Source: Isurus oxyrinchus (lineage: Eukaryota). From it: a DNA stretch of 64,000 bases. Of the stretch, positions 4,586-45,542 are shown piece after piece. The DNA lies in NCBI GenBank assembly GCA_026770705.1, contig JANJGN010000031.1:1302001-1366000 (forward strand). The letters run 5' to 3'. The notes beneath the pieces are model-generated. The model ran no database searches and was not told the DNA's origin. It saw only the letters and a program-made list of their open reading frames with translations. The position numbers and the translations under genes are program-made. Position 1 is the stretch's first letter. Every line of letters starts with the position of its first letter.

Positions 4586-4776
4586 GTAAGGAAATTTATT
4601 CAAAATTTCGCGCTTTCTTTTTCTTCCCCACCCCTCATTTTCTCCCTTTTTCTCTGCCCCCACCCCCTTCTCTTTCTTTATTTCCGCTCGCTTTTTTCTT
4701 TCATTATTTCGTTTGCTCTCTCCACTACCGGAATGTCGCTGTTTATTGACCTCCTCTCGCTCTGTATTCTTCCTCG

Positions 4777-5064
4777 GCGTGAACGCACAGATGATCCTCC
4801 AGTTTCCCGCTGCTGTCTCCAAATCTCTTGGGCAGGGAGTAGTTCTGAACTTCATCCTGCAGGGCACCAGTACTGGCCGTAGGCTCTGGTACAGGCTGTA
4901 CGCGAGGACGGAGCTCAAGTTAAAGTTTTACTCCCAAAATACACAAAGTGTGAGTCCCGGTGGACGGTTTCACCGGCCGGAGACCGAGTGGCTCCGATTT
5001 CAAGCTGGAGACCCCCAGCCTGCGGGCGAATCACTCGGCCGTGTATTACTGCGCCTGGAGTTTT
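4777..5064 (+). pseudogene. TRBV: Inverted Vbeta pseudogene 3' of Cbeta (TRBV30/Vbeta14-like)
   Basis: AQMILQFPAAVSKSLGQGVVLNFILQGTSTGRRLWYR...LKFYS, frameshift near 4958, then VDGFTGRRPSGSDFKLETPSLRANHSAVYYCAWS. First Cys is Phe (TTC 4851); acceptor AG reads CG. Confidence 0.93.
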
Positions 5065-5102
5065 CACAGTGACTCAGAGAGATGGGCAACTCAACAAAAA
5101 CC
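5065..5102 (+). other. RSS of the inverted Vbeta (23-type, 22-nt spacer)
   Basis: CACAGTG, ACTCAGAGAGATGGGCAACTCA (22 nt), ACAAAAACC. Confidence 0.93.
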
Positions 5103-6994: not shown

Positions 6995-7904
6995 CGCTAT
7001 GACACAGTCGATGGCAAATGCTGAGTTGTTCAAAACCCAAAGAGAAACTTGAAACAGCTGCCACAACTTGTTTTTCTGTTTGTATAAATTTCGAGATGCG
7101 TGCCTTGAATTCACTAGTAATAAGACCATCAAGTCTTATAGGTTTTACAAAACCAGGTTAAACATTTATTAATACAAGAAATTACTTTAACTATATAGAT
7201 AGATCTACAAATTACTACTATGATAACCTTTCAATCCCCTAATCAATCTAACTCCCAGTTACACTTTCGTTAAGGCAATCATAATGCACATAGATTTTAA
7301 AAGGCCCAGGCAACGAAACATGGTACCCTGAACAAATCGAATTTAAAGTGAGTTTTCTTAACTTCAGCCCTTTGAAGACAGCAGCTTGAGGCTTAGATGC
7401 TGAAGGCTTTTCTCACTTGTAAATCTTAAAATGCCTACCCTTACATACATCCTTCACTACTTAATATATATCTTCCCCTTTGAATACAAATATCCATTGT
7501 TTCACTATGTTTTGGGCATTATTTTCCTGATAATAAAAGTGACACATAGCACTATGTTTTACCAATAATCTTTAGGAAAAATAAATACACTCTTTCTAAA
7601 CTTCACCTGGCTAGGTGACATATTACACTCCTCCTTTTGAAGACAATCTCATCTGGTTTATTTAAAATACAAATGTTCCGTTGACACCTATGTTTCTAAA
7701 CTTCCCCATGTTTACAGAATTAACATTTCAAGCTAACTCTTCTTCTTACATCAAAACATCCAGACTGTAATTCAAGTAAATCTCACCCACACACAGAGAC
7801 CGCTATAGCACACAGACATATGTAGGCACATTGATATGTCCTACTATTACTCAATATTACACTAAATTCCAATAACATTTTGAGAATTATTATATCTCTC
7901 TGGC
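6995..7904. mobile_element. Solo LTR, older copy
   Basis: Similar along its length to 54125-55450; termini decayed. Confidence 0.55.
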
Positions 7905-9010: not shown

Positions 9011-9514
9011 TGGTGAACTGTACTCAATAATATGATCCTAGTTAAAAGGTGGCATTCTACATTGCACAACATTCCCTCAGTTCTTCCTCCTGCTGCGTCC
9101 TGACAAACCTGTTAAACTTCCTGCATTCAAATCAATATTAAAATCCCTCTAAAAGTTCTTATTGAGTCTGCTTTCTCCATCCTTCAAGGCAGCACGGACC
9201 AGATCATACCTGGCTGCATCAAAATATTTCTTCCTATTGCCCCTTATTATTTTTAACTAGGTATCTTAAAACTGCTTTTTCTTGTTACAAAGTGTCCTCG
9301 TGCAATGCTTAAAAATATTCAATTGCTGACCCAATCATTTTCCTTCAGTTGTTCTTTCCATAAAAGTTTTCAGGGAATTTGGTGCAAGTATTATTTTTTA
9401 ACTGATGTTGGGGCCAGTGCATCAGCAAAATGACATTCTTAACAACAAATGCTGCAAAATAAAAATGTGAGGCGAAGAGCAGGCAATTGAGACACATCTG
9501 TATATGTTATTACA

Positions 9515-14117: not shown

Positions 14118-17094
14118 ATCCCTCCTTTCTTTACCCATTTAAGCCGACATCATTTTTTCTATTTCTTTATCCTTCACTCATCCAGGCACCACTTCTTTCC
14201 CTTGTAACTCGGCATCGAACATTTTAATAAGTGATCTATTCTAATGATGCTTTGTATTTTCAATCATTAATTGTCTTTACAAAACATTGCAGTTCGCTGC
14301 CTCAGTGCACGGCATATACAATGAAATAGGGTCTACCTGGGAAAGCACGGCTGCCGGAAATACACGAAAGGTGCAGGGTCGAAAGACAACGCACAGCACA
14401 GGGAAAACACAGCAGAACCGGGACTTAAATGTACTAGAAATTGTAGGAAATATATCCAGAGTCGAAAGGGGAAACGAGGAACTACAGGATATTCACAATA
14501 AATGAGAGTCTGAAGTCCGCCAAAAGAGCATTGCAACACGCAAGATGCACATAGACTAAAGAAAGATTTATTTAATTATCTATTATGGTGGGATTGGAAC
14601 TCATATCTCCAGGTGCTTCACTCAGGATTGTTAGGCTAGTCATATAACAGCACTGTTATCTCGCACTTTAACCTGTTTTCATGCCTCAGCCATGCTAGTG
14701 GAAAATGAAGTGTCCGTGGTTCCCTGCAGGTGATGTGTGATGCTCTGACTCTCATGTCTTTAAACACAAACACCAGGCTGTTATCTTTCTTGGTGCATAT
14801 TTTGTCCTATTTAAAAATTGGCAGCTACACCCTGATAACCGCACACCCTGACTGTTTTCTGTCTCTTTATCTCTGCACTATTTAATAATGCTTCTGCAGT
14901 TTTTGACAATTTTTTTCCACAAGAGCATCGAAACAAAATGTGCAGCTATTTGAGGCGATTGATTGAATTAGACAGTGTAGATAGGAGAATGGCCCTACGA
15001 AGGAGCAGGCACTGAATCGCCAAATGACCTCCGTCTGTGCTGTAACATTTTGTGGTTCTATGACATCTACCCGGAAATGTGCTCTGATGCGAGTGTCTGA
15101 AAATATTTCCAACAAAATTTACAATCAAAAATTATAGAGGGAAGAAGATATAGCGCCCAAATCACTTTCATTCCCAGTTTTCTATTCCGTCGAGGGCAGA
15201 AGATTTAGGAGAGATCAAATCGAGGTATTAGAAATGATTAAATTGTTTGATAAGGTAGACAGAGACAAAAACTCTTTCTCTGTTAGGGACATCCAGAACA
15301 ATGGGATCTACCCTTAGAATTCAATCTAGGCTGCCCAGCGGTACTGTCAGGAGGCACCCGACACAAAGGTGATTGGAAATCTGGAACTCACTTCCATCAA
15401 CAAGCTGTTGAGGCTGGCGTGCGTGCGGGGTGCGGGTGAGGTTGATGGTGTTGGTGTCTACACCAATGTTAAAACCAATATTGTGATTTTTTTTTGTGAG
15501 GGAAAATATTAAGCCGCATGGTCGGAGACACGTAGATGGAGTTAGATGGAGATTAACCATGATGTCATTGAATGGCTGAAGACACTCAAGGGGCCGTTGC
15601 CTGTTTGTATGTGGCTTTGCCTTTCGGTGATGATGTTGTTAGCTGATTGACAGTTTGAAAGCCTAACAATGTAATAATAAAGTTACCTTGTTTGCAGGCT
15701 TGTGCATAAGCTGGATCATAACATTCGATGACTGGTCCCTAAATGCCAAAGGTTGATTAACCATAAGAAATCAAATCTCACCAAACCCTAATTATTGCTT
15801 TAGACGCGAATAGCAAGTGTAACACAACTCTTGTTTCTTTCTAACCTTCCAACAATCACAGATTATTTCAGCACGGAACAGAAGGCAGTCACTAGGCCCG
15901 TCGTACATGTGTTTTCTCTTTGAAAGTGTTACTCCATTAGTCCCACTTCCCCATCGCCTGCTGTTAACACATAAGTCTACAAATATTTTCCCTTTTAAGT
16001 AAATACCAAATGCCCTTTTTAAAGTGACTATTCAAACTACTACTGACAACCTTCCAGGAAATGCATCCAGATAACGACGTCTCGCTATGTAATTTCTGTA
16101 TGTCGCCTCTCATTATTTTGGCAAAGACATTAACTATGGGCCCTCTTGTTACCCATCTGTATGTCTATCTATCTACCTACCTGATCTCAGGGACTGTGCC
16201 TATAACATAACAGGGAGCAGTCAGCACCAGAGTTCACATTGAATCATCAACACAAAATACGACAGATACTGGAGATCTGAAATAAAAAAAAAACCCTGGA
16301 AAAACTGGCAACATCTGTGGCGAGAGAAACAGAGTTAATGTGTCAAATCCAAAATTATTTTTCAGAACTTTCGAAGAACACTCATGCCTGACTGGAAATC
16401 TTAACTCTATTAACCTGGTCTGTTCATCTTGAGCTGCAGTAGGAAAGGAGGGATTAAAGAATGACAGATTGAACTAAAGCGAGTTTGTTTGAATAAAGGG
16501 AAGAGGCGGTGGTGTAATTCTAACGCCACTAGACTAGTGATGCAGACACCCAAGGAGACAGGGTAGAGGCAGCAGCTGGTGGAATTCAAATTCAATAAAT
16601 AAATCTGGAATAAACAGGGACGATATAACTATCATCAGTTGTTGTAAAATACCATCTGGCTCATTTCTTCCTCTTTAGGGGGGGACAATTGTTGTTGATA
16701 GATGTGAGCCAGGCCCAAGGTAATGTGCCTAACTCTTAACTACCCTATGAAATGGCTCAGCCAGCCACTCAGCTGAAGGGCAATTAGTAATGGGTAAGTG
16801 AGGGGGAAAGGAAGAGCGCAAGAAAAAAATAGGAATAAGTAAGAAAGAAAAGTGGAAAGAACGGCAGAATGGAAAGAAGAAAGTAATGAATGAGAGAGAA
16901 AGAAAGGATAACAGGAATGAAAAAATAAAAAAGGATGAGAGAAGCAAAGAAATATAGAAAGAAGGCGAGCTTGATTGCACGAAAGGAAGACTGAAAGAAT
17001 CAGAAAGGAAAGCGTTGACAATGAAAGTGAGAAAGGTAAATGGAAGCAAAGAGCTGAAGACAGGAAGCACAATTACATGAAAACAAAATGCTAA

Positions 17095-17450
17095 AGTGCG
17101 GAAGTTCAGTTACGACGTGTCCAGCAGCCACGTTCGTTTGCAAAGGGGCGGCAGGTGCAGGCGTTCAGAGAGAATTTATCACCCAGGAGGAAATGAGAGG
17201 GCAACATCTCAGCCAGCCATCCTCCAAACTCAAGAGTACCTTGGCTACAGGTGCCACGTTCCGTTAAACCGCAGAGTGAAACTCGGGCCCACGACCTACT
17301 TTGGAAATCCTGTGCCACGTCTGTTAGCTCAAAGCTGCATCCCACCACTTCCGTTTGATATTTTTCCGTGCAGCTGCTGTTTTTCTACCCAGTTCGTGTC
17401 TTGGTTTGAGTCAGTACTTTCCAGTCTGATCAACCGACGGAAATAACAAT
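17095..17450. promoter_or_regulatory. Candidate TCR beta enhancer (Ebeta-like)
   Basis: Non-repetitive, CpG-rich block between Cbeta and the inverted Vs. ETS CGGAAGT (17099) and ACTTCCG (17347), RUNX AACCGCA (17267), E-boxes CAGGTG (17152, 17248) and CAGCTG (17371), AP-1 TGAGTCA (17407), three GCCACGT. Confidence 0.55.
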
Positions 17451-18689
17451 AGACATGGATTTTAAAGTCAACTTACATTATTGCTTTCTCGTCTGCTTTT
17501 GCACTCATGCAGCTGAATCCTTTAATAAAACTAAAATTCAATTTTCGCCACATTATAAGATATAGTAAACTCCTGATCAAGTCTGCCTTCCCGCGTTGAT
17601 TTCTTCTATTGCAACTGTTCGCATTTTTGCATGCCGTGTGCTCGTTGAAGTAAATAATCGGTTTGGGGTGTGTAACAGTGTTGGAAAAGAGGAAGGGGGA
17701 GATGCGAGATCGAATTCGGCGAGAGTGAAAGCGTGAAAGGGAGAGAGAAAGATAAAGGTATAAAGACAGAGGAGAAAGAAAAAGAGTGGGAAAGGCCGAA
17801 AGCCACAAAGTCAAAGGCAGAAAGACGGGTGAGAGAGAGACAGAAAGAGGCAGAGAGAGAAAGCAAGAGCCGGGGAAGGAAAGGTGGTAGAGAGCTAGGT
17901 AATTGGCAACAAGGGCAAGAAATGGAGAGAGGCAGAAAGACAGACAAACATACAGAATTAGAGTGAGCGAGGCAGAAGGAGAATGTGAGAGAGGGAGAGT
18001 TAAATAGATATGGACAGGGTTTAGGAAGACGAAGTAAAAGTCAAAAAGTCAGAGGGAACTGCAGAGAAGCATGGAGAAAGAAGGAGAATTGAACAGTAGG
18101 CAGGTAGAGAAAAATGAGAAAGGCTGGGACAGACGAGAAAGATAGGAAGAGAGATGGCACAATCGATATATAGGCACATGGAGAGAGAGAAGAGAGACAA
18201 AGCGCAAGAAAAAACAAAGAGAGGATATGGCCAGGAAGCGACATAAGTGAATGTAGGGTGGATAGAAAAGCAGTAAGGAGTAGGTCTTAGGAAAAGAGAG
18301 CATGGAGGTTTATAGGGACAGAGAACTTGTGGGAAAGTGAGGAAAGGAATTGGAACAAGGGCAGATGGAGCCAAGCAAAGAAAGAAACATTGGAATAGAA
18401 GGACAGAAGGAGATACTGTCCATGACAAATTGTACCGAGTTTCCTAAACATGCTGTGCTTGCAACTTTACCAAACTGGTTTAAAGAATATACTGATGTAT
18501 ATGTGCATCACTCAGTGTGATAACAAACGTCTCTCTCAATGTCTGCATCTCATGAAAATCTCTTTATATTTCATAGGTGTCTGGCTCTATCCCTCCCCCA
18601 ACAGCATGGCTCAGCACTCCCATGGGGCAAAAGGTGGACACCAGCTGCCCTGACATTCGTAATCTCCTACTTAGACACTCACAGAATAA

Positions 18690-21525
18690 CAGAATCAAAC
18701 TGTGCAGAAGAGGCCCTTGAGCCCATCGAGCCTGCATCGACACGTGGGAAACACCTGACCTACATGCCAAATCCCATTTACCAGCACTTGGCTAATAGCC
18801 TGGAATGTTATGACGTGCCAAGCGCTCATCTAGTTCCTTTTGAAAGGATGTGAGGCAACCGGCCACCACCATCCACCCAAGCAGTGCATCCCAGACCGGC
18901 ACCACCCTCTAGGTAAAAAAATGTTTCCTCACATCCCCCCTATACCTCCTTCCCCTCACCTTGAAATTGTGTCCCATCGTGACTGACCCTTCAATTAAGG
19001 GGAACAGCTGCTCCCTATCCAGTCCATGACCCTCACAATCTTGTACACCTCGATCAGGTCGCCCCCCAGTCTCCTCTGCTCGAACAAAAACAATCCAGGT
19101 CTATCCAACCTCTCTTTTTAGCTTAAACGTTTCATCCCCAGCAATGTTCTGGTTAATCTCCTCTGCACCTCCTCCAGTACAATCACGTCCTTCCTATAAT
19201 GTGGCGACCAGAACTCCACACAGTACTCCAGCTGTGGCCTCAATAAGGTTCTATACAAATCCAACAAGACTTGTCTCCTTTTGTAATCTATTCCTCGATT
19301 TAGAAAGGCAAGTGCTAATATGTCATTTTCATCACCTTACTAAATGCCCCTCCGCCTTCAAAGATCTATGGATACACAGGCCAAGTTCCCATTGTTCCTC
19401 AGAACTTCCTAATGTCATGCCGTTCATTGAATATTCCCCTGTCAAATTACTCCTTCCAAAGTGTATCACCTCACACTTTTCACTGTTAAATTCCATCTGC
19501 CACTTACCTGCCCATTTCACCATCCCGTCTACATCTTCCTGTAGCCCAAGACATTCAATCTCACTCTGAACCACCCGGCCAATCTTTGTGTCATCCTCAA
19601 ATTTACTAATCCTACCCCCCACATAGTCATCTATGTCGTTTATATAAACAACGAATAATAGGGGACCCAGCACAGATCCCTGTGGTACGCCACTGGACAC
19701 TGGATTCCAGATACAAAATCAACCTTCTGTCCTCATCATCTGTCTCCTACAACTAAGCCAATTTTGAATCCATCTTATTAAATTGCACTGTATCCCATGT
19801 GCATTTGCCTTCTTTATAAGTCTCCCATGTGGGACATTGTCAAAGGCTTTGCTGAAATCCATATAAACTATTTCAACTACACTACCATCATCTATATATC
19901 TAGTCACCTCCTCAAACAATTCACTCAAATTTGTTAGGCATGACCTCCCTCTAAAAAAGCCATGCTGACTATCGCTGATCAAACCTTGCCTCTCCAATTA
20001 GAGATAGATTCTCTCGTTCAAGTTTTTCTCCAATAGCTTCATTACCACTGACGTGAGACTCACTGGCCTGTAGTTCCATGGCTTCTCTCTACTGTGCTAC
20101 TGTGCTGCACTTTTCTTTGTTTTATGTTATTTGACCCTTCTTAAATAGCAGAACCACATTCGCTGTTCTCCAGTCCTTGAGTCCTCCCTCGTGGCCAGAG
20201 AGGAATTAAAAATTTGGGTCAGAGCCCGTGCGATGTCCTCCCTTCCCTTCCTCAGCAGTCCAGGACACAAATCCTCCAGACCTAGTGTTTTGTCAACTTT
20301 TAAGCCTGCCAACACCTCCAATACCTTGTCACTCCCTACATTAATTTGCTTAAGAATCCTTCAGTCTCTCTCCCCGAGTTCCATACATTCATCCTCATTC
20401 TCTTGAAGATGGATAGAAGTATTCGTTCAACACTCTACCGATGTCCTCTGGCTCCACCCATGGATTGCCATCTTGGTCCCGAATGGGCCCTACTCCTTCC
20501 CTGGTTATCCTTTTCCCATTGATATACTTATAGATTACCTTGGGGTTTTCCTTACTTTTACCAGCCAGAACTCTCTCATCTCCCCTTTTTGCTCTTCTTA
20601 TTGCTTTCTTAAGCTCTACCCTGCACTTTTTGTACTCCACTAATGACTCTACTGATTTGCGCCCCTTGTACCTGCTAAAAGACTCTCTTTTCTTTCTCAT
20701 TGTGTCCTGAATATCTCTGATAATCTATTGTTGTCTAGGCTTATTACTCCTTCCTATCACGCAAGAGGGAACATATTGAGCCTGTGCCCTGTCCATTTCC
20801 TCTTTGAACGGCCCCCACTGCTCCTCTGTAGATTTTCCCACAAATATCAGTTCCCAGTCTACCTTGGCCAGATCCTGCCTTATTTTACTAGAATCCGCAC
20901 TCCCCCAATTCAAAACATTTTTTTTTTGCAACTTGTCTATTTATTTGCCCATGGAAAGCGTAAATTGCACCACATTGTGTTCACTATTACTAAAACGTTC
21001 CCCACCACCTCCCCAGCCACCTGCCTGGCTTCATTCCCCAGAATTAGATCCAACACTGCACCTCCCCTTGTTAGACACTTTTCATATTGACCTACGAAGT
21101 TCCCTTGTACACATATTACGAAATCTACTCCATTCAATCCTTTAACATTATGCCTATCCCAATTAATGTTTGGAGAGTTGAAATCACCCTATTGTTATTG
21201 TTTTACACACCTCCGCGAATTGTGCACATATTTGCTCCTCAATTTCCCGATGACTGTCTAGAAGTCTATATTAAACACCTAACAATGTGGCTGCCTCTTT
21301 TTTATTCCTAAATTCTACCCACAAAGCTTCATTCCATGTCCCCTCCAAGATATTATATCACCTTACTACAATCACTGACTCCTTAACTAATAATGTGATA
21401 ACTCCTCCTCTTTTGCGCCCTCCCCTGTTTCGCCTGAAGGTTCTATATCCCGGAATATTGAGCTTCCAATCCTGTCAATCCTTCAACCACGTCTCCGTGA
21501 TGGCTACCATATCACAATTCCCTTA
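18690..21525 (-). mobile_element. CR1 LINE, 5'-truncated, about 2.8 kb
   Basis: SQHGF..GRSCLTNL, VYMDFSKAFD.VPH, SGVPQGSVLGPLLFVVYIND, KFEDDTKIG. Confidence 0.92.
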
Positions 21526-22528
21526 GTGACTGTAAGCGCAACTGCCGGTTTGCAGCAAATCATTTACAAGGAAGCGGTGTTTTGACATTTATGCCAAATC
21601 TGAGAATGAAATTGTCCAAACCAGGAACCGACAGAGAAGATTCTTGGTGAAATTGAATGTGAGGACCATCGTAGAAGCGTTCTAGGAGTGGCCTTGGGCC
21701 AAAAGTCCAGAGATATAAATTCAACTCCTATTACAGCAGCTGGAGAACTTAAATTAAGCCTGAGAACATGGAATAAAATCTATCATCACTAATGGTGACT
21801 TTTAATCTACTGGCTAATTGCAAAATCCAATCTGGCTGGGAGGGATTATATCATCTTTACGCAGTCTGCCTTCCATGTGACTCCAGGCCCACAATTTTGC
21901 GGTTGACGCATAATTGCCCTGTGAAATAGCCTAGCAGACCATTCGGTTGTATTCAAGTAGGTGAGGGCAATTAGGAATACGTATAGTATGCTGGCCTTGC
22001 CAGCTTTCCGCACATCCCATGATTTAATTTAAAGAAAATTCCCGCCCAAAGGTAGTAGTCCAATGGTTGGCACCCAGAATCATATACTGCAACACAAAGA
22101 AAACGAGAGGACGACTCGAACCGGTCACAGAACTTGGAATCTACTCAGCCCACTATGCCTACTGGATAAGATTGCCGGGAGGCCCTACAGCCCACAAGAA
22201 TTGTTGCTCTGGACGTGGAGTTCTTTCAACATTCTCGAGTCTGTTGTATAGTGACAGGAGGAGAAGATATATCCCTCTGGTGCATATTACATAGGAACAC
22301 GATGATGCAATTAAATACCCAGCACCTGCTCCGACATTGAATTAGACAGTGGCTGATCTGCTTCTTAACCCCATTCCCCACCTTTGTTGGATATCCCTTG
22401 ATAGCCATACTAAACAAACACCTATAAAATGTCTATGTACAAATTTTTGTCTTTACAAAAGCATGGCGTTTGGGGGAAAAGCTGAAATAACGATGAAAAG
22501 AAACGGGTTTCTTTGTAGAAATATTCTA

Positions 22529-22534
22529 TTTATT
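22529..22534 (-). terminator. Candidate polyadenylation signal of TRBC
   Basis: AATAAA on the minus strand about 750 nt after the stop, followed by T-rich sequence. Confidence 0.5.
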
Positions 22535-23277
22535 TCTTAAACAATGAACAAATAGAAAGAAATGTAAAAAGAACAGAAGTCACCTGTCCATACAGGATGC
22601 ACTGAGAAGCCCATGACAAATAATGGACAAGTGTGAGCCCAGTCTCCATCCACAATATTTGAACTGAATTCTAAAACTAACAATAAGAGTTGTGCATTAA
22701 TCTACAAGAGTAAATACGTTGATATGCGCACCAAACAGAATTTTAGTTACAGTGTACCTTCTGCTGCTTAGCAATATGCACAGCTTTACTAGACTGGCAA
22801 AGGAGATTTTGTTTCATGGGGAGATTAAAGAGGATGTAATTGTTCACCTTGGGATAAAGTGGAACAAATGGCTGACTTTTTTTCAAACAGCAAGCATTTG
22901 CACAATGGGACAAATGGCATCCTTTAGTGCTGATAGATCCTATACTTCTTTATAAAGAGTCAAAGGACACAGAATAACAATGAATAAGCAAATAATCTAG
23001 AAAAAATGTTGTGAATTTCTCAAAACGTAACCTGTTCAGGCAGCAGGAATTTATAGCAATCTCAAGATTATGAACGGATTCATTCCAAGCGAAAAGCTAA
23101 AATTTCATTTCGTACATTTCATCCATTAATTTCACACAACAACAGTGCGCCTATGTTTACACCGGTGTGGCGGGAGTTGATCGGCAAAATTCACCCCCTA
23201 GATATTCACAGTAGTCATATTTTCTCTTCTCCTTCTCTCGTGTTTTCCACCGTTTATCTGTTCAACGCTTGTGATGG

Positions 23278-23304
23278 TCAATCAAATCTTTTGCTGTAAG
23301 ATGT
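23278..23304 (-). CDS. TRBC: TCR beta constant exon 4 coding part (cytoplasmic tail and stop)
   Basis: T-rich tract then gcacag|ACA TCT TAC AGC AAA AGA TTT GAT TGA = TSYSKRFD*; phase 0 matches the exon 3 donor. Confidence 0.85.
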   Translation of the reverse strand, partial: TSYSKRFD

Positions 23305-23799
23305 CTGTGCACAATGAAAAAAATACAGTCTGCCTTTTAATCATTTTAAAACCAGAATCATACAGCACAGAAGAAGGCCAACCTCCTGGCATTTCTAAAG
23401 GGATAGCCAATTAATCCCAATTCCCAGCTGTCTTCCCATAGCCCTTATCCAGATCGCAACACTTATACATCCAGCGTCATTTTGAAAGTTACTATTGAAT
23501 CTGTTTCTATTGCCCTTTCTGGCTGTCAGTTCCAAATCAGGACAACTCGCTGCATAAACCGCCACCACCACCATCCCCCCACCCCCATCTCCCCCCACCC
23601 CCCCACCACCCCCCCCCCCCCCCAGCTCCTCCTTTGGTTTTTTTGGTCAGTTATTTTATACTTCTGCGCTCTGCTTACCAATCCACCTACCACTGGACTC
23701 AGTGTCCCATTACTTACACAAGGCTCTCAATTGTGTCTGAGCCATTTCTGCACTCTTCCCTTCCCCACCCCACCCAGAACCTCTTTTTCCACCCCGCCA

Positions 23800-24730
23800 G
23801 CTTCCGCATTCAATGTATTATCTTCACCAACTCCAGCAGTGTGCCACCACTAGACACACCCTCTCCTTTACTTTAAGCATTCTGAAGGACTATTCCCTCT
23901 GGCCCACTCTTCTATCAAGCCCAACACCACATCCTTTCCCATGGCAACGTCCCATGCAATCACCGGAGGTGTAACACCTGGCCAGTTACTTTCTCCCTCC
24001 TCACTCCTTTAAGGTCAAGCAACGATTTACTTGTGCTTCTTTCAATCTAGTCTATTGTATTCGCTGCTCACAGTGTGATCTTCTTGGCACTGGGGAGACA
24101 AGTCGCCGACTGGATGAGCATTTTATGCAGCACCTTAGCTCAATTCTCCAGCACGACCCTGACCGCCAGATCTCTTGCCATTTCAATTCACCGTTTTGCT
24201 CTCATGCTCTCATTCTTGTCATTGGCCTGTTGCAATGTAAAACCCAATGCAAGCTTGAGGAACAACACCCCATCTTCCGATTAGGCAATTTACAGACTTC
24301 CAGACTCAACATTCAGTACAACAACTTCAGACCATGAATTGTGTCCTCCATTTTGTAGTTTCCCCGAGTGCCAACCTGTATCTTGGTTCTAATGCCTTGC
24401 TTTCAGGTAGCTCTGACCTTTATTCTCTAGACCAATGCTTTGTTCCTTTACTATACCATTACCACCCTCTTTGCCTTTGTTCCATGACATAGCTGTCATT
24501 CGCTTTCCCCCGCATTCTAACCTTCTGACCTTCCCATTTTCTCCAGCTGACTCTCTCCCTTTTCAATAGCTTAAAACGGATCACATCCTTACTTCTCTTC
24601 CATTCCAAAGAAGAGTCATATTGGAGTCGAACGGTTAACTGTCTGTCTCTCTTCAGAGTTGCTCCCTGAGTTTTTCCAACATTTTCTGCTTTATTTAAGA
24701 TCTCCAGCATCAACAGTATTTTGCTTTTAT
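23800..24730 (+). mobile_element. Penelope-like element with GIY-YIG endonuclease remnant, in Cbeta intron 3
   Basis: RFTCASFNLVYCIRCSQC..GETSRRL.EHF.QHL at about 24022-24136. Confidence 0.8.
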
Positions 24731-25664
24731 CTCACCATTTACACCACTGACTCTGTTCATGATTTTCGAACACTTCTGTGAAATATCCCCTTACACTTCC
24801 CTGCTGTAAGGAGCACAATCCACTTTTCATGCAATAACAGACGTGATGCATCCCTGATACCATTCAAGGAAATCTCTTCATGCTGTGCAATGACTTGACA
24901 TCACTGCCCTGACAAAATCAGTAATAGTCGTTATGACTCATACTATCCTGGTCATGCTTTCTTGATCTTAAACCCAAAGCGTTGTTAAAAAGCAGAAAAC
25001 TGTGTTTATTTGTAAAAGAAAATCATGAATCACAACAGAATAAAATATATTCAATTCTGGTTTTTTACATAGTGTCATGGGCAATTTGAGTGAAATGGAA
25101 GTTTTTTTTTCATTCGAATAATGTAGAATAAAAATCAACAATAGGAGCCTCTAACATGAGATATGCACTGGCACATCCAACAGTGAATTCAACGGAAACA
25201 TATTTTTACCCAGGGACCAGTTAAAATGTGGAACTTGCCACCATTTACAGTTATTGAGGCGAATAGTAAAGATGCTGCCATGGCAGAAGGTAGATAAGCA
25301 AATAGATGTACGCAGTAACAGAAGGTCATGGTGCTAAGGTCAGATTAAGTGAGGTTGGGCTAGTATGATGCGTAAACAGTGGCAGGCACAATTAGGGCTG
25401 AAAGGGCTATTTCTGTCCTATAAGTGTAATTCTATGAATGAATAGATGGATTTCTTCATTGACATCATTTAAAATCATGTAAAACCGTTAGCATGAACGT
25501 GGAGTGCAATTTTGCTGCAGAAAATCTGTAGCATGAGATTCGGTCAAAGTATAGGGACCCAACGACTGAAGGAACAACATTTTTGTTCCTGCTTGGGCAC
25601 CATAAAGAACCCAGCTTCACTTTTGGAATGCATATTTTAATACATTTAGTTAGTTTAATCTGAC

Positions 25665-25771
25665 CTTGGTTTTCCAAGCAAGTATTGAGACGAATAGTCC
25701 ATAAAAGATGCTTTTGCAGATCAGGGTCAGGTACGTCAATTTTGCTGCTCCCATGCTTTGCATTTTCGCTT
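25665..25771 (-). CDS. TRBC: TCR beta constant exon 3 (transmembrane)
   Basis: cacag|AA...AAG|gtcaga; 107 nt; EAKMQSMGAAKLTYLTLICKSIFYGLFVSILAWKTK with the intramembrane Lys and the Y..L..K...Y pattern of TCR beta TM. Confidence 0.95.
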
Positions 25772-27423
25772 CTGTGAAGTAAATATAAGGAACAATTTGG
25801 AATTCCTGTTCTCTAGAAGTAAGGAATTCTATTGTTAGGAAATGAAACCTATCTTAATCTCATGATCCCAGCCTAAGAGTTGAGTTGTAAAAAGATAATG
25901 TTCGCCTTTGATGCGAGAAGTTGCTCTACGCCCTACCCCACTACAGTAAGCCTACTTCAATGACGTCCCATATCCAATTATGAACACTGCTATCTCCTGT
26001 GGGGATCATGCTAACATTTCCACCGCCAACCCTCAAAGACGAAGCAATATCTTAATTGGTAGCTCAGGAGTGTATGGGTGGAAGCTTGTTAAACCATAAC
26101 TCCGTGGGGAGATTTCTCCCTTCGGGGCCAAAAGATCATGCCCCACTCCAGAGCCCCATAATCCATATCAAAAGTCCCAGTGTCAGTAGAGCCGAAACAT
26201 TGCACGATTGGACCAACCATTTTTCAGACAGGGCCTTAGATCGATGAGCTGATGCCCTCTCTGGCGAATGTAAATGAATCGGCAGCAGCATTGTGATCTC
26301 CAGTATGCCTGTTCCTTAACCGACGTCACAAATAACAGATTATCTGGTCATATATCTCCTTGTTTTTTGTGGGATGTTGCTACGTGCAAATTAGTTTCTG
26401 CAACCCCTACGTTATAGTACTGATTTAAATTTCAAAGTACTTCATTGGCTACAAAGAGTTTCGGGATGTAATTCGGTCCTGAAAGGCACTACATAAAACT
26501 CCCCTTCTCCAAAGAGCGGAACTTCACTTCTTGTTTCTGCGCTACATTCAAACTATGATCTCACAGGAGGAACTTTAAGTTTTAAGACAGATGGACTCCC
26601 TCCATCCACCGCCAGGCCTTTCTTTTCCCTCATCACAGCGAACGTTCATTTCTATGAATTGAGTCCAGGAGACCTCGATACTAATTCAGTGGGCCATCAT
26701 TGTCTGGAAAGCCTAGCTACATTTCTCTCCCGACATGAATTTTCTAATAAACTCTGTGGCAAACGCAGTTTTGTTTTTAATGGAAAGCAAGTGTTTCCAA
26801 ATGTTGAAATGACTGTATGCACGCAATATCCGATACGGTACTAATTGCAGAATTACAATTTATCGCTCTGACTATTTAAAATCATAGCCTTATTATGGCA
26901 TAACAGAAGGCCATTTGGCTCGTCCAGCCTATGCCGTCTCTGTAGAGCTGTTCCGTTAACTCCATTCCCCTACTCTATCTCTGTAGCCCTGCAACTTTTT
27001 TTCTTTCAACTATCCATCTAATTTTCTTTTGAAATCATTGGTTACCATCGCTTCCAACACAATCATGGCCATTTCAGATCATTGCCTTTCTCTGTATGCA
27101 AAGAAAAGCTCTTTGTTGCATTACTCCTACATCTCGTACCCAAAACATTAAAGCTGTGCCCCCTTGTCCTTGTGCCATCAGGTAATGGGACAGTGTTTCT
27201 TTGTCTACATTATCTAAATCTATCATAATCTTGTACACCTGCATCAAATCTTCCCTCACTCCTCCTTTCTTCCAAGGAGAGCAATCCCAGCTTTCACAAC
27301 CTTATAGCTAAAAGCCCCATCCCTGGAAACATTTTGGTAAGTCTCCTTGGCGCCCTCTTAACGACCGTCTATTCTTCCCAAAGCGCGTTGCCCAGAAGCA
27401 GATAGAAGGATATGGAGGCTTAC

Positions 27424-27444
27424 CTTTACTTACACCGCAGGTTG
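27424..27444 (-). CDS. TRBC: TCR beta constant exon 2 (connecting peptide with interchain Cys)
   Basis: ttttgtttcag|CA ACC TGC GGT GTA AGT AAA G|gtaagc: 21 nt, phase 1/1, reads ATCGVSK, comparable to mammalian DCGFTS. Confidence 0.9.
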
Positions 27445-27765
27445 CTGAAACAAAATCAAAATAAAAGCAACGAGTTAGCACCAGATGCTTTATGAAATCA
27501 GTGTATATTTGCAGATGATCACCGTTGTAAGACACACTCAGCCTGATACATTATGACAGTCGTGTTAATATAGTTTTGAATATTGTTTCCGAGTACATTT
27601 ACATGTTCTATGTGTTTTTTGAATGATTTATTTAGTCATTTATTGATTTACAGATTCATCTACGTGTTACTCATTCATTGTGAAGGGCACGGGCACTACG
27701 TAAGTGCAAGATATTGCTTCCTTTGAAGCTAAAATGCAATGGCATGGGCCATTTTTATGACCTAC

Positions 27766-28116
27766 CAGTTTTGATGTGTAGCGTGTAATTAGATTCATGA
27801 AAATCTGATACTCCAATATAATGCTTCACTGCGCACGTAATTGTCTTAACCCAGATCCAATCTTGGGCATCGAGCCTCAGGCGACTGCTGATGCTGAAGG
27901 ATTTGTTCCCTTCACTTGGGATGGAATTGAGGTCGGTCTGAATGCTTGGGTCGTTGGCCTTCTTCACCATGTCATCGACGAACCACTTGATCTCGATGTT
28001 GTCGGGGTAGAAATCAGTTACAAGGCAAACCACAGTCGCTTTCCCCTTCACCTTAATTTCTTCAGGGGAGGGTTCAAAGATAGAAACGTTGGCGTTCCTA
28101 ATTTTGTCATTCTTAT
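27766..28116 (-). CDS. TRBC: TCR beta constant region exon 1 (Ig C1-set domain)
   Basis: Translates (D)KNDKIRNANVSIFEPSPEEIKVKGKATVVCLVTDFYPDNIEIKWFVD...SFSISSRLRL...ITCAVKH...IKT. The FEPS..EI..KAT.VCL..FYPD and SSRLR motifs are Cbeta hallmarks. Acceptor cag at 28119-28117, phase-1 donor G|gtagg at 27765; 351 nt, open. Confidence 0.97.
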
Positions 28117-29284
28117 CTGCGTGGGAATTAAACAAAACTAAATGGAGAGAACATGGATGAGGATGAAAACAGTCCGAGGAGTTTAAACAATATAACGTTT
28201 CAATCTTAGGACAATTAACTTAATGCTAAGTTCAGAACAAACCTACTTCCTAACAACCATGCCACCCGTTACAATAAATCACCGAATCAGTTTGCAAGAT
28301 GTGGGTGTTTTATATGTTTTGACCAGAAATGATGTGACTTGGTAATTAGATCACTAAGTGAAATGTAACTCTGCATCAAGCACAAGATATTTTCCTGTCA
28401 ATCTAAAAATGTGATCTGCATTATGGACCAATTTGTCATCAATTCACTGGACTATCATTTAGTCTGTCCCTGAAAAGTCCTTTCCAATTCTACGCATGCC
28501 TACCTCCCCTCACGTGATCAACAATGTAATTATTGCAATCATAAACTGATATGGTAAATAAGGAGGCTGTTCAGCCCAACGTGTAACTGCAGGGACTTTG
28601 CTGGAGGTATCAAGTTAGTCCCACTTCCTCCGCCTTGCCCTTCTCTCATCGCGCAGTAATCTGCTATCAAGTTGGTCTCCTCAAGTTTCCTCCATTTGCT
28701 TTGTATAAATTGCTGCTGAGTCTGCTTCCATCATCATGTCAGGTAGTGCATTCCGGATTAAACACCTAGGTCTGAAAAATATCAGCATCTCCCCTCTGCC
28801 TTTTTATTTGCCAATCGTCTTAAATCAGTAAATTTCAGTTTCAATTAAATATATTTCATTTTGAAATATTAAAGTGTCTGGGTTTGCAGTCAATTACCTG
28901 CGAGGCTGCCTGAATATTAGACAGGGATTTTATTCGATTAAAATGATAGAATCAACAACACAGCAAATGATTCCCAATCTTGTTGAATTTTTTGGTCTGA
29001 ATGTTGAACCAATGATCAGTTGAAGTAATTATATTGAAACGGCTGGAGCTCTTTTCTTTAGAAAATGGTGGAGTGAGCGCTGAATGAATAGAATGCTTAA
29101 GATGCTGAAAGGTTTGAAAGGACAGGCTTGAAAAATATCTTCCTACTCGCGTATGTGTCTGGCTATGTATATATGTGAGTGTGGTGTGTGTGTGCGTGTG
29201 TGTTCGGGAGGGGTGGGGGTTGGGTGGGAGGTGGACTAGGGTGATATTTAACACGAATGTAACTTAAATGTAAGATAGTCAGAA

Positions 29285-32210
29285 AGAACACAAGAACACG
29301 AGAAATAGGAGTAGGAGTAGACCATATGGGACATCAAGCTTTCTCTACTATTCAGTACGATCACAGCTGGTCTTCGGATTCAAATCCATTTTGCCAGCTG
29401 CTCCCCATATCCCTTAATTCCCTGAGAGATCAACAATCTGTTTATCCCAGCCTTAAATCCGCTGGGATAGAAAATTCCAAACATTAACAGCCGTTTGGGT
29501 GAAGTGATTTTCTCGAATCTCAGTCTCAGATGATTGGCCCCTTGCCCTGAGACTGTGCCCATATCCTATTGACTCCCCAACCGGCGGGAAAAAGAATCTC
29601 TCAGCATCCACCCTATCAAACCCCTTCATAATTTTGGTAAGTTTCAATGAGATCGCTTCTCATTCTTCTGACCTCCAGATAATATAAGCACAATGTACTT
29701 TGGCTGAATACAAAGTGCAGGCCCTTCTTCCCAGGGATCAATCTAGAGAACCTTCGCTTCACTGCCGTCAATGCAAATAAATCCTTTACTTAAATGTGGG
29801 GACTAAAACTGCACATAACTCCGGATGTGGTCTCACCAAAACCCTGCACAATTGTAGCAAGGTTTCTTTATTCTACTATTCCCATCTCCTTACGATAAAA
29901 GCCAACATGCTAGTTGCCTCCTTAATTTCTTGCTGTACCTGCATGCTAGCTTTTTGAGTTCTTTCGACCCTTTGAACATGAAGACTTACAAGTTTCATAC
30001 CTTATAAATGATATTCTACTTCTCTATTCTTACGACCAAAGAGAATAATTTCACACTATCCTATATTATACTGAGTCTCCCATCCGGTCACACACTCACT
30101 TAACCTGTCTATATCACTTTGCAGCCTTTTTGTGTCCTCCTTGCAGCTTACCAACCGACTTAAATTGGTATCATAACCAAACTTTGATACATTACTCTTC
30201 ATCCCTTCATCAAAGTCATTAACGTAGATTGCAAAAAGCAGAGGCTTCAGCACTGATCCGTGTTGCACTCCACAATTCACTGCCTGCCAACTTGATAAAG
30301 CTCCATTTAGGCCCACTCTCTGCTTTCTACCCGTTAGCCAATCCTCTACCCATGCTAAAACACTACCCCAAATTCCACGAGCCTTTATCTTGCCTATTAA
30401 CCATGAATTGTGGCACCTTTTCGACTGCCTATTGGAAATCTGGGTATATGCCGTCTACTGATCCCACTTTATCTACCCTACTAGTTACATCCTAAAAACA
30501 TCTAAGTTTTTTTAAATTTGTTTATGGGCTGTGAGCCAGCATTTATCGTCCATCCAAAGTTGCCCTTGAGAAGGTGGTGGGTGAGCCGCCTTCTTGAACC
30601 GCTGCAGTCCATGTGGTGCAGGTACACTTACAGTGCTGTTAGGGAGTGGGTTCCAGGTCTTGACCCAGTGACAGCGAAGGAACAGCCATATATTTCCAAG
30701 TCAGGGTGCACAGTCACTTGAAATGGAGCCTCCAGGTGGTGATGTTGCCATCTCCCTGTTGTCCTTGTCTTTCTGGATGGCAGTGGTCGTGGTTTAGAAA
30801 GTGTTGTCTAAGAAGCCTTTGTTTGAGTTTCTGCAGTGCATCTTGTAGATGGTACACACTGTGTCACTGTGCCTCGGTGGTAGAGGGAGTGAATGTTTGT
30901 GAAAGTGTTACCGTTCAAGCAGAATGATTTGTGCTGGACGGTGTCAAGTTCCTGAGTGCAGTGGGAGCTGCACTCATCCAGGCAAGTAGGGAGTATCCCT
31001 TCACACTCCTGACTTGTGCCTTGTAGATGACAGACAGGCTTTGGAGAGCCAGGAGGTGAGTTAATTGCCGTAGGATTCCTAGCCCACTTCCGACCTTATG
31101 ATGGAAGGTAGGTCATTGATGAAGCAGTTGGAGATGGTTGGGCCGACGACACTCCCCTCAGTAACTCCTGCAGTGATGTCGTGGAACTGAGATGATTGAC
31201 CTCCAGCAACCACAACCATCTTCCTTTTTGTTATGAATGAGTCCAACCAGCGGAGTGTTTTTTTTTCCTTACTCCCATTCACTCCAGTTTTGCTCGAGCT
31301 CCTTGATATCACTCTCTGCTAAAGGCTGCATTCATGTCAAGGGCAGTCACTCTGAACTCACGTCTGACGTTCAGCTCTTTTATCATTTTTGAACCAAGGT
31401 TGTAATGATGCTAGGAGCTGGATGGTGGAAACTATACTGAGAGTCAGCTGTCAAACAGAAGTTCCCCTTAGTAAAACCATGTTGGCTTGTTCTGATCGTA
31501 CTCTTCTTTTCTGGGTTCATTGTTAAGACTTCCAAACAATTAAATTCCAGCATTTTTTCCTACAGCTGATGCTAGGCTAAATGGCCTAATTCACTGATTT
31601 TTTCTCTCTCTCCCTCTCTGTTCTTGAAAGGTGGTGCAACATTTGGCAACTGCAAACCTAATGGGACCGTTCCTGAATCTGCAAAGTTTTGGAAAATCAT
31701 AGCTAGCACATCCACTAACTCTACATCTATCTCTTTCAGAAACTTAGGATGTAGGTCATCAGATCCCAGGGAGTTATCAGATTTTAGTTCTTCCAGTTTC
31801 GCCAAATATTTTTCTCTGATTATGTTAATTTCCTTAATTTCCTCACTCTCTTTAGCACCTAAGTTGTCGTCTATTTCCTGTATGAAACATGTTTCTTCTA
31901 ATATGGAGACAGACACGACATATTTGTTCAATGTCTCTATTTCCTCATTCTTCATGATAATTTCTCCATTGTTTCTAATGGGACAACATTTACTTCAGCT
32001 ATCCTCTTCCCCTTCATATACTTATAAAAGCTCTTACAATCGTATTTATTTAATATTCCTGGCTTGTTTACTCTCAGATTCTATGTTTTCCCCTTTTTAT
32101 CAAAATTGTGATAGCTCTCTGCTGGCTTCTGAATTATTCCTAACTCTCAGGCTTGCTACTTTTTTTTTAAAACGATGCAAGCCTCTTCTTTTAATCCAAT
32201 ATGATCATTA
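29285..32210 (-). mobile_element. CR1 LINE interrupted by a second LINE (about 30518-31445)
   Basis: GVQHGSVLKPLLFAIYVND, KFGYDT, LHPKFLKEI; the insert carries ITAGVTEGSVVGPT. Confidence 0.85.
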
Positions 32211-32756
32211 ATTTATTGCGAGGAATTTTACAGCCCCTCCCGGCGGTGTGATTTTCCACCGAAGTCAATGGATTTTAAATGGCTAGCCGCATTTGATAGC
32301 CCCGCCCCTTAAAGGTTTCGCTCCTTGTTTATATCAATGGAATAATTTCTTATTTTGAAGATTTTGAGTTATTTCGTTCTATGTTTCCCATTGTCCATTT
32401 AGCTCATATCTTTTAGACTATTTCCCTTAACCAATAACCACCTCCCCCGCCCCCACCCCCACCCACACCCCCCTCACCCACCCCCCCCCCCCCCCCCCCC
32501 CCGCCCCCCAATGTAATTTGCTTTGTTTGAGTTTAAGATTCTTCTTTATAATTGGAGTATGTCTTTTATTACTTTACATGGAATTGAATAGTATTATGAT
32601 CACAATAAATCCATTAGAGATTTCAGGGGAAATGGACCAGTGAGTGATGAGAATGTAGAACTCACTACAAGAGGGTTAGAAGTATCGATGCATTCATGTG
32701 GGAAGCTGGATCAAGATATCATTGCGAAAGAAATAGGAAGACGTGATCTCGGATGA

Positions 32757-33370
32757 GACCATAAGACATAGGAGCAGAAATTAGGCCAATCGGCCAATCG
32801 AGTCTGCTCTGCCATTCAATCATGGCTGATAAATTTCTTAACCCCATTCTCCCGCCCCCTCCCCGTAACCTTTGGTCCGCTTACCAATCAGGAACCTATC
32901 TATCTCGTTCTTAAATACACTCAATGAACTGGCCTCCACAGCCTTCTGTGGCAATGAATTCTATAGATTCATCACTCTCTGGCTAAGGAAGTTTCTCCTC
33001 ATCTTCCCTTTTCTTTGAGGCTGTGCCCTCGGGTCCTAGTCTCTCCTACCAATGGAAACATCTTCCCCACGTCCACTCTATCCAGGCCTTTCAGTATTCT
33101 CTAAGTATCAATCACATCCCCGCTCATCCTTCTAAACTCCATCAAGTATAGACCCTGAGTCCTCAAACGTTCCTCATGTGTTAAGCCTTTCATTCCTGGG
33201 ATCGTTCTCGAGAACCTCCTCTGGACCCTCTCCAGGGCCAGCACATCCTTCCTGAGATACGGAGCCCAAAATTGCTCACAATATTCTAAATGTGGTCTGA
33301 CCAGAGCCTTATAAAGCTTCAGCAGCACATCCCTGCTTTTATATTCTAGTCCGCTCGAAATAAATATCAA
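32757..33370 (-). mobile_element. Young CR1 LINE 3' end
   Basis: LLKLYKALVRPHLEYCEQFWAPYLRKDVLALERVQRRF. Confidence 0.9.
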
Positions 33371-36141
33371 TGATGAGGAGGGATGGGAGGAGGTTCGGGT
33401 GGTGCATGATTGGGCCGACTGGCCTATTTATAGGCTAAAATTCTATGTAATTAATACGTATGCACCTTTAACAAGCAGGCGGGCATCTTCTACCATTCCT
33501 GGTACTCAAGACGCTTTCAACTGATTGGCCGCAAATTACACACAACATTTATAATACCATTATAAATGGAACGACATCATCAATCCCCCCTTCAGCTTCG
33601 CTGCCCTAAGGAGAATAAATGTAGCTACACTCGCCCCTCCACATAATCGAAACGCTGCAGCCCTGGTACCAATCTCATGAACCTCCTACGCAGCCTCGCT
33701 AATGCCTTGATATCCTTCTTAAGGCATGGTGGCCAAGAATTGGATATAACACTCAAGCCGAAGCCCAACCAGTGCTTAATTTATTTTGCACCACTGTTGC
33801 AGTACAAAACCTTCGAAGGTGCTCAGTAGAAGAGCAACTCGGACAAATAATTGAAGTCGAGCCATATAAGATGCATAAGGCCAAAATATGATAAATTATG
33901 TGGCTTATGAGAAGCTTCTTAATAGATGAGAGAAATGAGGGAGCAGAGGGAGAACGAGAGTTTCAAGGAGAGAAGTTCGGAGATTAGGGTGGAGGCAGCT
34001 GAAGAAAAGAACAGCCAATGATACAGAGAATGGAATGGGGAACTGACGAAGAAGCCAGAATAGGATGAGTGCAGAAACCTTGTAAATTCACAATATTCAG
34101 TCTCTGATGAACTACAAACCTAAGGTTTGAAATCATTATCCGCCCTCACCTCTTGACAACTCTAACATTTTGAAGCATTCCTAAAACTCTATAGTTGGCT
34201 AATCGCTTAGCGCCAGAAATGTCAGTTTCAAAAAGCAGCAAATAACCAGTGTGACATTATAATAACCAGCTGGCACTGAAAGCTTAGCTTCATCTCAATA
34301 AAAATAATTTGCGTTATTGCAACACAGTTAACAGTCGCTGCATTACGACTATGAATCAATTCATTTCTTTCAACTCATATATGTTTATATGTGGGGGAAG
34401 TAACTACCGGAATGCCGTTTCTGGTGTTTAAATCATCTAATTGGAAATAACTTAGCTAGAGAATTATTTCCAAATCTGGGTAGCTCCCTTGGTAAAGGAT
34501 GTCAAGGCACTGGAGAGGGCTCCGAGCAAATCTAACAGGACAGTACGAGGGATAAAGGTCTTCCATCATTGTGGACAGACTGGAGAAGCTGGCGTTGTTC
34601 TCCTCAGAACAGAGAAGGTTAAGTGGAGATTTAATAGACGCGTTCAAAAATGTGAAGAATTTTCATCGAGTAAAAACGTATAAGTTGCTTTTACTGGCAG
34701 ATGAGTTGATGACCACAGGAGACACGAGCATTACCAAAATACAGGGGTGAGGAGGTGACTTTTATTTTTATGAACGAATAGGTATTACTGGAAATGTTTC
34801 ATGGCAGAAGCAGGTTTAACAATAACTTTCAAACCGATTGCACCTATTTTGACAAAGTAAAATGTTGAAAACTGATGCTGAAAGCTTGCAGATAACACTA
34901 ATTGGATAACTCTTCCAGTGAACTGACAGAGATATTATGGGCTGAATGAAAGCCTTCTGCGCTGAAGTTGTTGGGCTGTCATTAACAACACAATTGGTTC
35001 ATTAATCTGTTTTATGGATGGAAACCTGACATCCCTACTCAGTCCTCACTTATTTGTGAGTCCAATTCAAACCAACGTGCTTGATTCATAACTATTATCT
35101 GAAGAAGCCATTCACTTGTGTCTAAACCAGCTACCAGTGTTTCAAAGAGTATGCCCAGTAAACCTCCTCGGGGCAAAGTGAGGATGAGAAATAAATGCCA
35201 GTGATTTCCATAATCCTAGAATATAACTCACCCTCTTTATTAATTTAGAATAGAGAGTGAAATTGTTAAGCTATTTGGTTCTTGCTACTGATCTCTGGCT
35301 TGAAATCAAAGCATTAAATTATGGTTCATCAGAGGTTTAACACCAAATCCTTGATTATTCAATGCAATTCTTTTCATGAAGCGAGACAAGGGGTGGTTTC
35401 TCTCCAATATCTTATATTTTAAATCCTTGATTAATATTTGATTATTGCACACAATGCTTTTGTTGGGTAAGAGCATTAATGGTAACAGAAACAAACATGG
35501 CTAGATGGAGCTAAACTTCAGATCAGCTCTGATCTAACTGAATGACAGAACAGGGCCAGGGGGTGAATTGTCACCTCCTGGTCATCTGCTTGTTATAGTT
35601 GATGAGAGCAGACAATCGGGGATTCTGGCTCTTTTTGAAAATTGTTGACAAGGGTTTCCATCTATTGTCAACTCGACAGCAGCCCTTCATTGCTGAGTTT
35701 ATTTTATTTTAAATAATGAGTACTAGTTGAACATTGCCTCCCTGTTGACAAATTAACAAAAGTAAATGCGGTGTGACTGACTATTGGAAGAGTAAATTAT
35801 TCAATTTTACATGTGTAATTCGGACGTGGTGACCTATTGGGTGTGTCCCTCGACTGGTAATCCAGTGGCCCAGAATAATGCTCTAGGGACATGGATTCAA
35901 ATCCTCCCATGGCAGCTGGTGGAATTTAAATTCAATTAATAAACCTGGAGCATAAAGTTACTCTCAGCAATGGTGACCATGAAGCTATCATCGACTGTTG
36001 TAAAAACCCATCTCCTACACTAATATCCATTATGGAAGAAATCTGCCTAGCAAGCCTCTCAGTTCAACGGAAATATGGGATGGGAACAAATGCTGGCCGT
36101 GACAGCGATGACCATACCACTTGAAAGTATAAAAATAATAC

Positions 36142-36189: not shown

Positions 36190-36760
36190 CAGAGTAAAAT
36201 AGTAATATCAAAATTGCTGGGGCCATATCATTGCAGAATATGTTTTTATCTGGCTCCACTGAACACATTTATTTGACTAACAGCAATGCCTAGATTCATC
36301 TGGCCTTCCCTAGCCTATTCAATTCCAAAGGGAGGGCAATTGATAGCAGTGAAATTATTCTAAACTTTTATAGTATCTTCTCTAGACTTGCAGCACAGAT
36401 ATATGGACACTAGAACTGTGCACAATGCTTCAAATATAAAATTACTCAAATATATGAACACCAAAAACTGATCCCAGTTCTGGTCTCCTTGTATATTTCT
36501 ATTTATCTTGACTGAGGGCAACCTGATAAAGGTGGTTACAATGATGAAAGGTGAATTAGAAGAGGTGCATGTTGAGAAATCTTATAACCTGCCTATTTAA
36601 CAACATTGTCATTGTAAATTCTTCATCTTGCAATTCAACTTTACTCCAAGTTACCCAGCCTTTGTTTCTTTTTGTGAGCTTTCAACCAATTATGAAACAA
36701 GGAATGAACACTTGTAACAAATTAAAGGTTAAACACTAAGATACATTCTTGTTCACCCGT

Positions 36761-45514: not shown

Positions 45515-45542
45515 CACGGTAATTTATACCCATACAAAAAGA
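45515..45542 (+). other. Dbeta 5' 12-RSS
   Basis: CACGGTA, 12-nt spacer ATTTATACCCAT, ACAAAAAGA. Confidence 0.93.

Follow-up and report, generated by a model that had tools for sequence, protein, structure and literature searches.

The stretch of DNA analysed here, referred to as the window, comprises 64,000 bases of a shark contig (C31:1302001-1366000; genome searched, 4.98 Gb) and contains one TCR-beta D-J-C unit on the minus strand (Table 1). The stop codon of the constant gene occupies 23278-23280 (minus strand) and its poly(A) signal is at 22534; a protein search with its C exon gave three hits among 62 candidates, namely a white-shark protein at 91% identity and two Pristiophorus proteins named "TCR beta chain-like". 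In a search of solved structures, 60 of the 60 matches listed were Ig chains, with no isotype named there. The nine J-like segments found span 36.8 to 45.0 kb, and the D segment (heptamer at 45501) has a core with 11 bases identical to the TRBD given in the available part of PMC11754216. On the other side of C-beta, the nearest V segment is inverted, and its heptamer and nonamer are perfect, yet the spacer between them has 22 bases. V-like hits as a whole span at least 0.89 to 1.57 Mb of C31.

Between C-beta and this inverted V lies a non-coding block that had been proposed, from its motifs and its place in the locus, as an ancestral form of the mammalian E-beta enhancer. The position given in that original prediction, about 5.8 kb 3' of the C-beta stop and before the inverted V, was confirmed (5,828 bases from the stop to the block end at 17450, the inverted V RSS being at 5065). 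The equivalent position claimed for mammalian E-beta agrees with the mouse layout, in which the distances from E-beta are 5.9 kb to C-beta2 and 2.9 kb to V-beta14, itself an inverted V, according to the available part of PMC2193263. The likeness of 5.8 to 5.9 kb was set aside as a coincidence, since the other copies of the block, described below, stand about 1.7, 1.7, 6.2 and 7.9 kb beyond the respective stop codons, and a multi-copy repeat makes up some 2 kb of the gap in the window.

Table 1. Features of the window and homologues of the block. Positions are those of the window unless a contig is named; live copies lie behind intact C-beta genes and dead copies behind broken ones.
Feature	Position	Strand	Basis or remark
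Candidate TCR-beta 3' enhancer, conserved non-coding block	17095..17450		Motif cluster; homologues 3' of other C-beta exons
Block homologues	C31:1211228-1211696 (paralogue); C31:1095297-1095732; C31:907995-908432; C2826:~9040-9400		Genome search and local alignment
Presumed target TCR-beta constant gene, 4 exons	23278..28115	-	Exons about 28115-27765, 27443-27424, 25771-25665, 23304-23278
Presumed target J cluster and D segment	36750..45560	-	Nine J-like segments; D with 12-RSS and 23-RSS
Inverted V, 3' of C-beta	4735..5102	+	RSS at 5065, 22-base spacer
ETS consensus match	17099..17105	+	CGGATGT in paralogue, CGGAAAT in C2826; lost in both dead copies
E-box CAGGTG	17152..17157	+	Kept in paralogue; 6 columns off in C2826; lost in dead copies
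ETS/NFAT-like match AGGAAAT	17188..17194	+	Kept in paralogue only
Conserved footprint CTCCAAAC	17222..17229	+	Identical in 5/5 copies
E-box CAGGTG	17248..17253	+	Kept in paralogue; lost in C2826, which has instead an adjacent second RUNX match (ACCACA)
Core composite, MYB match and RUNX match (predicted)	17259..17276	-	MYB 17261-17266, one base from RUNX 17268-17273
Footprint like ROR/nuclear-receptor half-site	17293..17301	-	Nine bases identical in 5/5 copies
ETS:RUNX-like composite CGGAAGTGGT	17344..17353	-	E-beta spacing; paralogue has CGGAAGCGGT
E-box CAGCTG within GTGCAGCTG	17368..17376	+	Identical in 5/5 copies
AP-1 site TGAGTCA (17407-17413)	17405..17413	+	Identical in three live copies
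ETS consensus match	17438..17444	+	Kept in paralogue; C2826 ETS match 6 columns off; lost in dead copies

As had been stated, the block is rich in CpG (18 in 356 bases, o/e 0.78, compared with window means of 7.6 and 0.49), though it is not the richest part of the window: ranked by CpG count, the tile at 17101 comes within the first 16 of 637, and values as high or higher are seen in J, V and other regions. The four motif classes named were also found, with four ETS, three E2A-type E-box, one RUNX and one AP-1 match, by consensus strings that we take to represent these factors and that were fixed only after a first alignment had been seen. These nine matches compare with 1.5 in dinucleotide shuffles, none of 3000 shuffles reaching nine. 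Across 456 kb of the locus, three windows hold nine matches, namely the block, its paralogue and one with eight ETS and one RUNX, and all four classes are combined in the block and the paralogue only; when TCF, GATA and CRE motifs are added, the block loses its first rank and GATA satellites dominate. Scattering the 250 matches of the 64 kb gave a probability of 0.016 (47 of 3000 trials) that any 356-base window reaches nine by chance, a value that is not negligible over many windows. It thereby lends something to the explanation that the block is neutral DNA within segmental duplications, its cluster and its retention being products of chance aided by slow shark evolution, gene conversion and post hoc choice of motifs, an explanation that is judged very unlikely on the comparisons given below.

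Some other roles were tried and rejected. A coding role is contradicted by the paralogue, in which the 121-codon open frame across the block is broken in all three frames, and a structured RNA by the search of Rfam, in which no family reached its gathering score and the best match, of 19 bases, fell far below it. A multicopy mobile repeat, a possibility raised with the original prediction, is not what the block is, given single-copy depth in two organisms (adjoining repeats exceed 10^4), two genome hits and a local copy number of two. It is also quite unlikely that the block is a promoter from which some unannotated transcript, non-coding or germline, starts 3' of C-beta: the CpG richness and the several ETS sites would suit a promoter, but the block contains no TATA box and one GC box, no V-like segment lies within 11 kb of it, neither a conserved ORF nor an Rfam family was found, and it accompanies five C-beta copies at distances of 1.7-7.9 kb.

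The genome search with the block returned two matches, the second copy being 107 kb away on the opposite strand, and sensitive local alignment added three further homologues, each behind another C-beta, so that the word "unique" used in the original prediction has to be given up. The C exon itself has 127 matches, five of which were taken further, four on C31 and the third-ranked on contig C2826, while the remaining 122 (29-48% identity, on other contigs) were left out as presumed Ig domains; a block homologue stands 3' of all five C-beta-like exons followed. The 107-kb copy, hereafter the paralogue, is part of an inverted duplication, roughly 50 kb long, in which the entire D-J-C unit is repeated together with its 3' flank (window 6317-56197 against C31:1220301-1162633; 85.4% identity over 42,181 aligned bases), and the C genes are open in both units. 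Salmonid and pike TRB loci likewise have a pair of oppositely oriented D-J-C units on one chromosome; as described in the available part of PMC10464911, they are head to head with the V genes in the middle, whereas the shark units are tail to tail, with the V arrays outside, about 12 inverted V-like segments between them and an enhancer-like copy in each. Neither a shark TCR-beta enhancer nor this duplicated layout is described in the mainly open literature searched, including the available parts of PMC11754216, PMC10464911 and PMC13337447.

Since the unusual motif cluster was itself the reason for selecting the block, independent tests were needed, and one of them is the comparison with the paralogue. 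Whole-block identity is not clearly raised (312 of 355 bases, or 87.9%, against the duplication mean of 85.4%; p=0.10), as would be expected of neutral DNA, and CpG retention is 11 of 18 against a background of 46% (p=0.24). The motifs, on the other hand, are all kept, 9/9 in the block compared with 66/160 elsewhere in the duplication (p=0.0005), and differences affect two of the 59 motif bases, both changes staying inside the consensus, compared with 41 of the 296 other block bases (p=0.014). Alternative motif definitions gave p=0.005-0.047 overall, among them 7/9 exact matches against 55/160 (p=0.013), 17/21 against 691/1263 (p=0.012) and, under a further definition, 12/14 against 249/520 (p=0.005). 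Tests of placement within the block were weaker with loose motif sets (p up to 0.10-0.17), the shift tests giving p=0.008, 0.10 and 0.039 and random placement 0.04, 0.17 and 0.05. The differences between block and paralogue are interleaved among the motifs, unlike those of a conversion tract, which counts against chance retention through gene conversion.

A more distant comparison is offered by C2826, where positions 17296-35500 hold an intact TCR-beta D-J-C unit comprising a D, six or more J segments and four exons with open frames. Its C exon is 50% identical to that of the window and 63% identical to the closest of 13 protein hits, without a close relative among them; against Heterodontus, Scyliorhinus, Mustelus, Heptranchias and Pristiophorus it scores 50-58%, and its placement in a tree was not resolved. 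Judged from these identities, C2826 and the window diverged at a depth comparable to the divergence of shark orders, and the unit may be either an ancient paralogue (a second beta isotype) or DNA from a different shark. C2826 carries a 616-base repeat that is 90% like copies on C31; this favours the old-paralogue reading without proving it, and under either origin the C2826 copy is a test of deep conservation.

Local alignment placed the block match at C2826:9167-9251 (69%, E 2.7e-6), and identity over the whole block is 58%. Other non-coding parts of the unit, both introns and flanks, also align to C2826, at 58-71%, as neutral DNA might; alignability therefore proves nothing, and the evidence is the pattern inside the block. 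There, 43 of 59 motif bases match compared with 142 of 260 other bases (p=0.007), so that motif bases are spared from substitution in two independent comparisons (p=0.014 with the paralogue), contrary to what neutrality predicts. Four of the nine motifs, plus the MYB site, are retained within 3 columns and six of nine within 6 columns, when simulation at 42% divergence expects 0.49 of nine (P of at least four, 0.0006; 0.013 at 33% divergence). A small empirical background is less decisive (4/9 against 3/20; p=0.11) and leaves more room for chance. Across the window copy, the paralogue and C2826, the three live copies, nine runs of at least five bases are identical.

The two remaining homologues lie behind broken C-beta exons (C31:1099271-1099540 and 911992-912277) situated among V genes, and remnants of the last exon, the 3' UTR and the block remain at both. 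The C exons upstream of these dead copies contain stops and frameshifts, and no J or transmembrane exon was found in the stretches covered around them. In local alignment the dead block copies match at 63% (E 3e-28 for C31:1095297-1095732 and 5e-26 for C31:907995-908432), and because they are 93% alike they were counted as one case. Overall they are nearer to the window (68-69%) than the C2826 copy is (58%), yet they keep two of nine motifs, the MYB site, all four ETS matches and the AP-1 site being lost, and their CpG o/e is 0.41 and 0.53 compared with 0.63-0.82 in the live copies. Neutral drift does not account well for farther live copies retaining more motifs than nearer dead ones. In the dead copies, motif bases have still changed slightly less than the other bases (p=0.09) and three footprints are intact, a pattern that fits what would be left by decay following a functional period. 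The claim that the block is a TCR-beta enhancer is well supported by this retention of motifs behind intact C-beta genes and their loss, for the most part, behind broken ones, whereas activity itself is predicted from these patterns. A search of sequencing runs gave 24, of DNA or of unstated kind, from the species itself and one close relative, organism B. In organism B, for which the comparison covers 17062-17355, the block has single-copy depth and 5 differences in 294 bases compared with 59 in 1,860 in the flanks (p=0.11), which is consistent with constraint and not significant.

The longest conserved stretch is the core at 17259-17276, in which the three live copies agree at 17 of 18 bases in spite of 58% identity overall, again at odds with neutrality. 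The 18-base core pattern has three matches in 4.98 Gb, exactly these three copies, and its reversed control has none; the MYB-RUNX arrangement occurs four times in 456 kb, two of them being the block and the paralogue. The block is ancient within sharks, since this core recurs in the C2826 unit, and the C exon there (50% identity) is about as remote from that of the window as are C exons from other shark orders. The run from CAGGTG to AACCGCA reported at 17248-17273 is present there, and its interpretation as E-box, RUNX, ETS, spacer and RUNX stood for the final RUNX site, while CCACG is lost in the paralogue and CAGGTG in C2826. Within it, TTCCG-TTA had been taken as an ETS site and fits better as a MYB site (CCGTTA) next to RUNX; the ETS core GGAA overlaps the MYB match, and its 3' flank is different in all three copies. 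The second RUNX site of the element is paired with MYB.

Outside the core, E-boxes bound by E-proteins are a feature of mammalian E-beta, and CASCTG matches number three in the window copy, four in the paralogue and four in C2826, one of them being invariant in all five copies; on one contig of organism B, the E-box at 17371 reads CAGATG, still CANNTG. Both dead copies have an altered AP-1 site, the affected bases differing from one copy to the other. The footprint at 17293-17301 resembles a ROR-type half-site and could tie the element to a nuclear receptor of thymocytes, the full RORE consensus being matched in the two dead copies only.

In its position 3' of C-beta and before an inverted V, as well as in its size, the block is similar to mammalian E-beta, whose mouse core has 560 bp, with elements betaE4 and betaE6 (available part of PMC5288706). 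In the sections of the sources at hand, E-beta has two RUNX-ETS composites and serves two tandem D-J-C clusters as one enhancer (PMC7696796), the composite being CAGGATGTGGT, in which A or T at the differing place supports co-occupancy (PMC2787013). The shark block also combines RUNX and ETS sites and has a composite in CAGGATGTGGT spacing, but there is one instead of two and it is imperfect: GGAAGYGGT is found once, in two copies, the C2826 version being split by an insertion with its ETS core staying in place, and GGAWGYGGT, with 31 occurrences in 456 kb, is weak alone. Moreover, each shark C-beta has its own copy of the block, unlike the single E-beta, and the best-kept shark RUNX site adjoins MYB. 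Since the block would work like E-beta but without two features that define E-beta, it is better regarded as a variant than as E-beta type proper. The idea of an ancestral E-beta keeps its force for antiquity within sharks and is weakened by the absence of paired ETS/RUNX composites and the coincidental 5.8-kb distance.

The adjacent RUNX and MYB sites, kept in all three copies behind intact C-beta, are instead a likeness to E-delta and E-gamma, which are marked in mammals by MYB-RUNX composites (available parts of PMC7696796, PMC2196263 and PMC2192427), the RUNX (CBF) and MYB sites of E-delta being adjacent in its deltaE3 element (PMC2196263). Likewise, one block copy per shark C-beta is comparable to the mouse arrangement of one E-gamma behind each C-gamma, as given in the available text of PMC7696796. 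E-delta and E-gamma combine RUNX, MYB and STAT5, according to the accessible part of PMC9437428. E-delta has GATA3 sites as well. In contrast, the five aligned shark copies (440-520 bases each) contain no STAT5 site (TTCN3GAA) and share no GATA match, and the block lies in the TRB locus, the adjoining gene being TCR-beta.

RUNX also acts in silencers, and in both C31 units the block is located between C-beta and the inverted V array, a place that would suit a silencer, a boundary separating the D-J-C unit from the inverted V genes, or an enhancer serving chiefly those V genes. Any of these is considered extremely unlikely: a crude test with a 13-base CTCF consensus and at most one mismatch found no match in the window; the motif set is that of activating TCR enhancers (available part of PMC7696796); and decay of the block tracks loss of C-beta. 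In mammalian E-beta, a CTCF site (site E) lies just downstream. The position, the five copies, the selective retention of motifs and the decay behind broken genes are direct observations, and they indicate, as far as DNA comparison can, that the block is probably a true 3' enhancer of TCR-beta and an old one among sharks. Whether it shares an ancestor with mammalian E-beta, judged from position and motif classes, is close to an even question that tips slightly toward the negative.

As an enhancer, the block would switch on its own D-J-C unit in developing T cells, with RUNX and MYB predicted to bind the adjoining core sites, and E-proteins, ETS factors and AP-1 the flanking ones. By analogy with mouse E-beta, as described in the available parts of PMC5288706 and PMC7696796, the complex would loop to the D-segment promoter about 28 kb away and open the D-J region for germline transcription and recombination, later driving the rearranged gene. 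Each unit would use its own block copy, the block having presumably been copied with each C-beta duplication, kept where C-beta is intact and left to decay where it is broken. A bolder proposal is doubtful; it holds that the RUNX-MYB module is the oldest part of the shark TCR-beta enhancer, that TCR enhancers began as a RUNX-MYB switch which each constant gene carried along when it was copied, that the stable double ETS-RUNX design of E-beta came later and that shark beta is timed more like gamma/delta. If real, the element would be a ready test fragment for how T-cell-specific control of V(D)J worked in the most ancient of the living lineages that have these receptors; its five natural versions, of which three accompany intact genes and two have decayed, single out the individual bases that may matter, and the MYB-RUNX core makes it testable whether the difference in design between beta and gamma/delta enhancers is ancient or later.

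Some other segments of the locus deserve mention. Two low-copy segments 3' of C-beta, at 7240-7440 and 14660-15090, have 91% paralogue identity over 200 bases, equal to the best of the block, and contain few motifs, the latter keeping an E-box, a RUNX and an ETS match. Across D, at 45484-45540, 57 bases are identical between the paralogues and include a TATA-like sequence inside the 12-RSS spacer, which makes this a likely D promoter, and a non-coding segment about 3.2 kb 5' of D (48690-49120) has 92% paralogue identity and 14 shared CpGs, the most in the duplication, and is a possible second regulatory element. CTCF-like matches occur at C31:1148148, 1156000 and 1177032, among V genes and 5.5 kb upstream of the D of the paralogous unit. 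The J segment at 36750-36800 has a splice donor apparently displaced relative to the paralogue and is possibly non-functional, and a 22-base spacer was also scored at C31:1227956, in the nearest-but-one V behind the paralogue.
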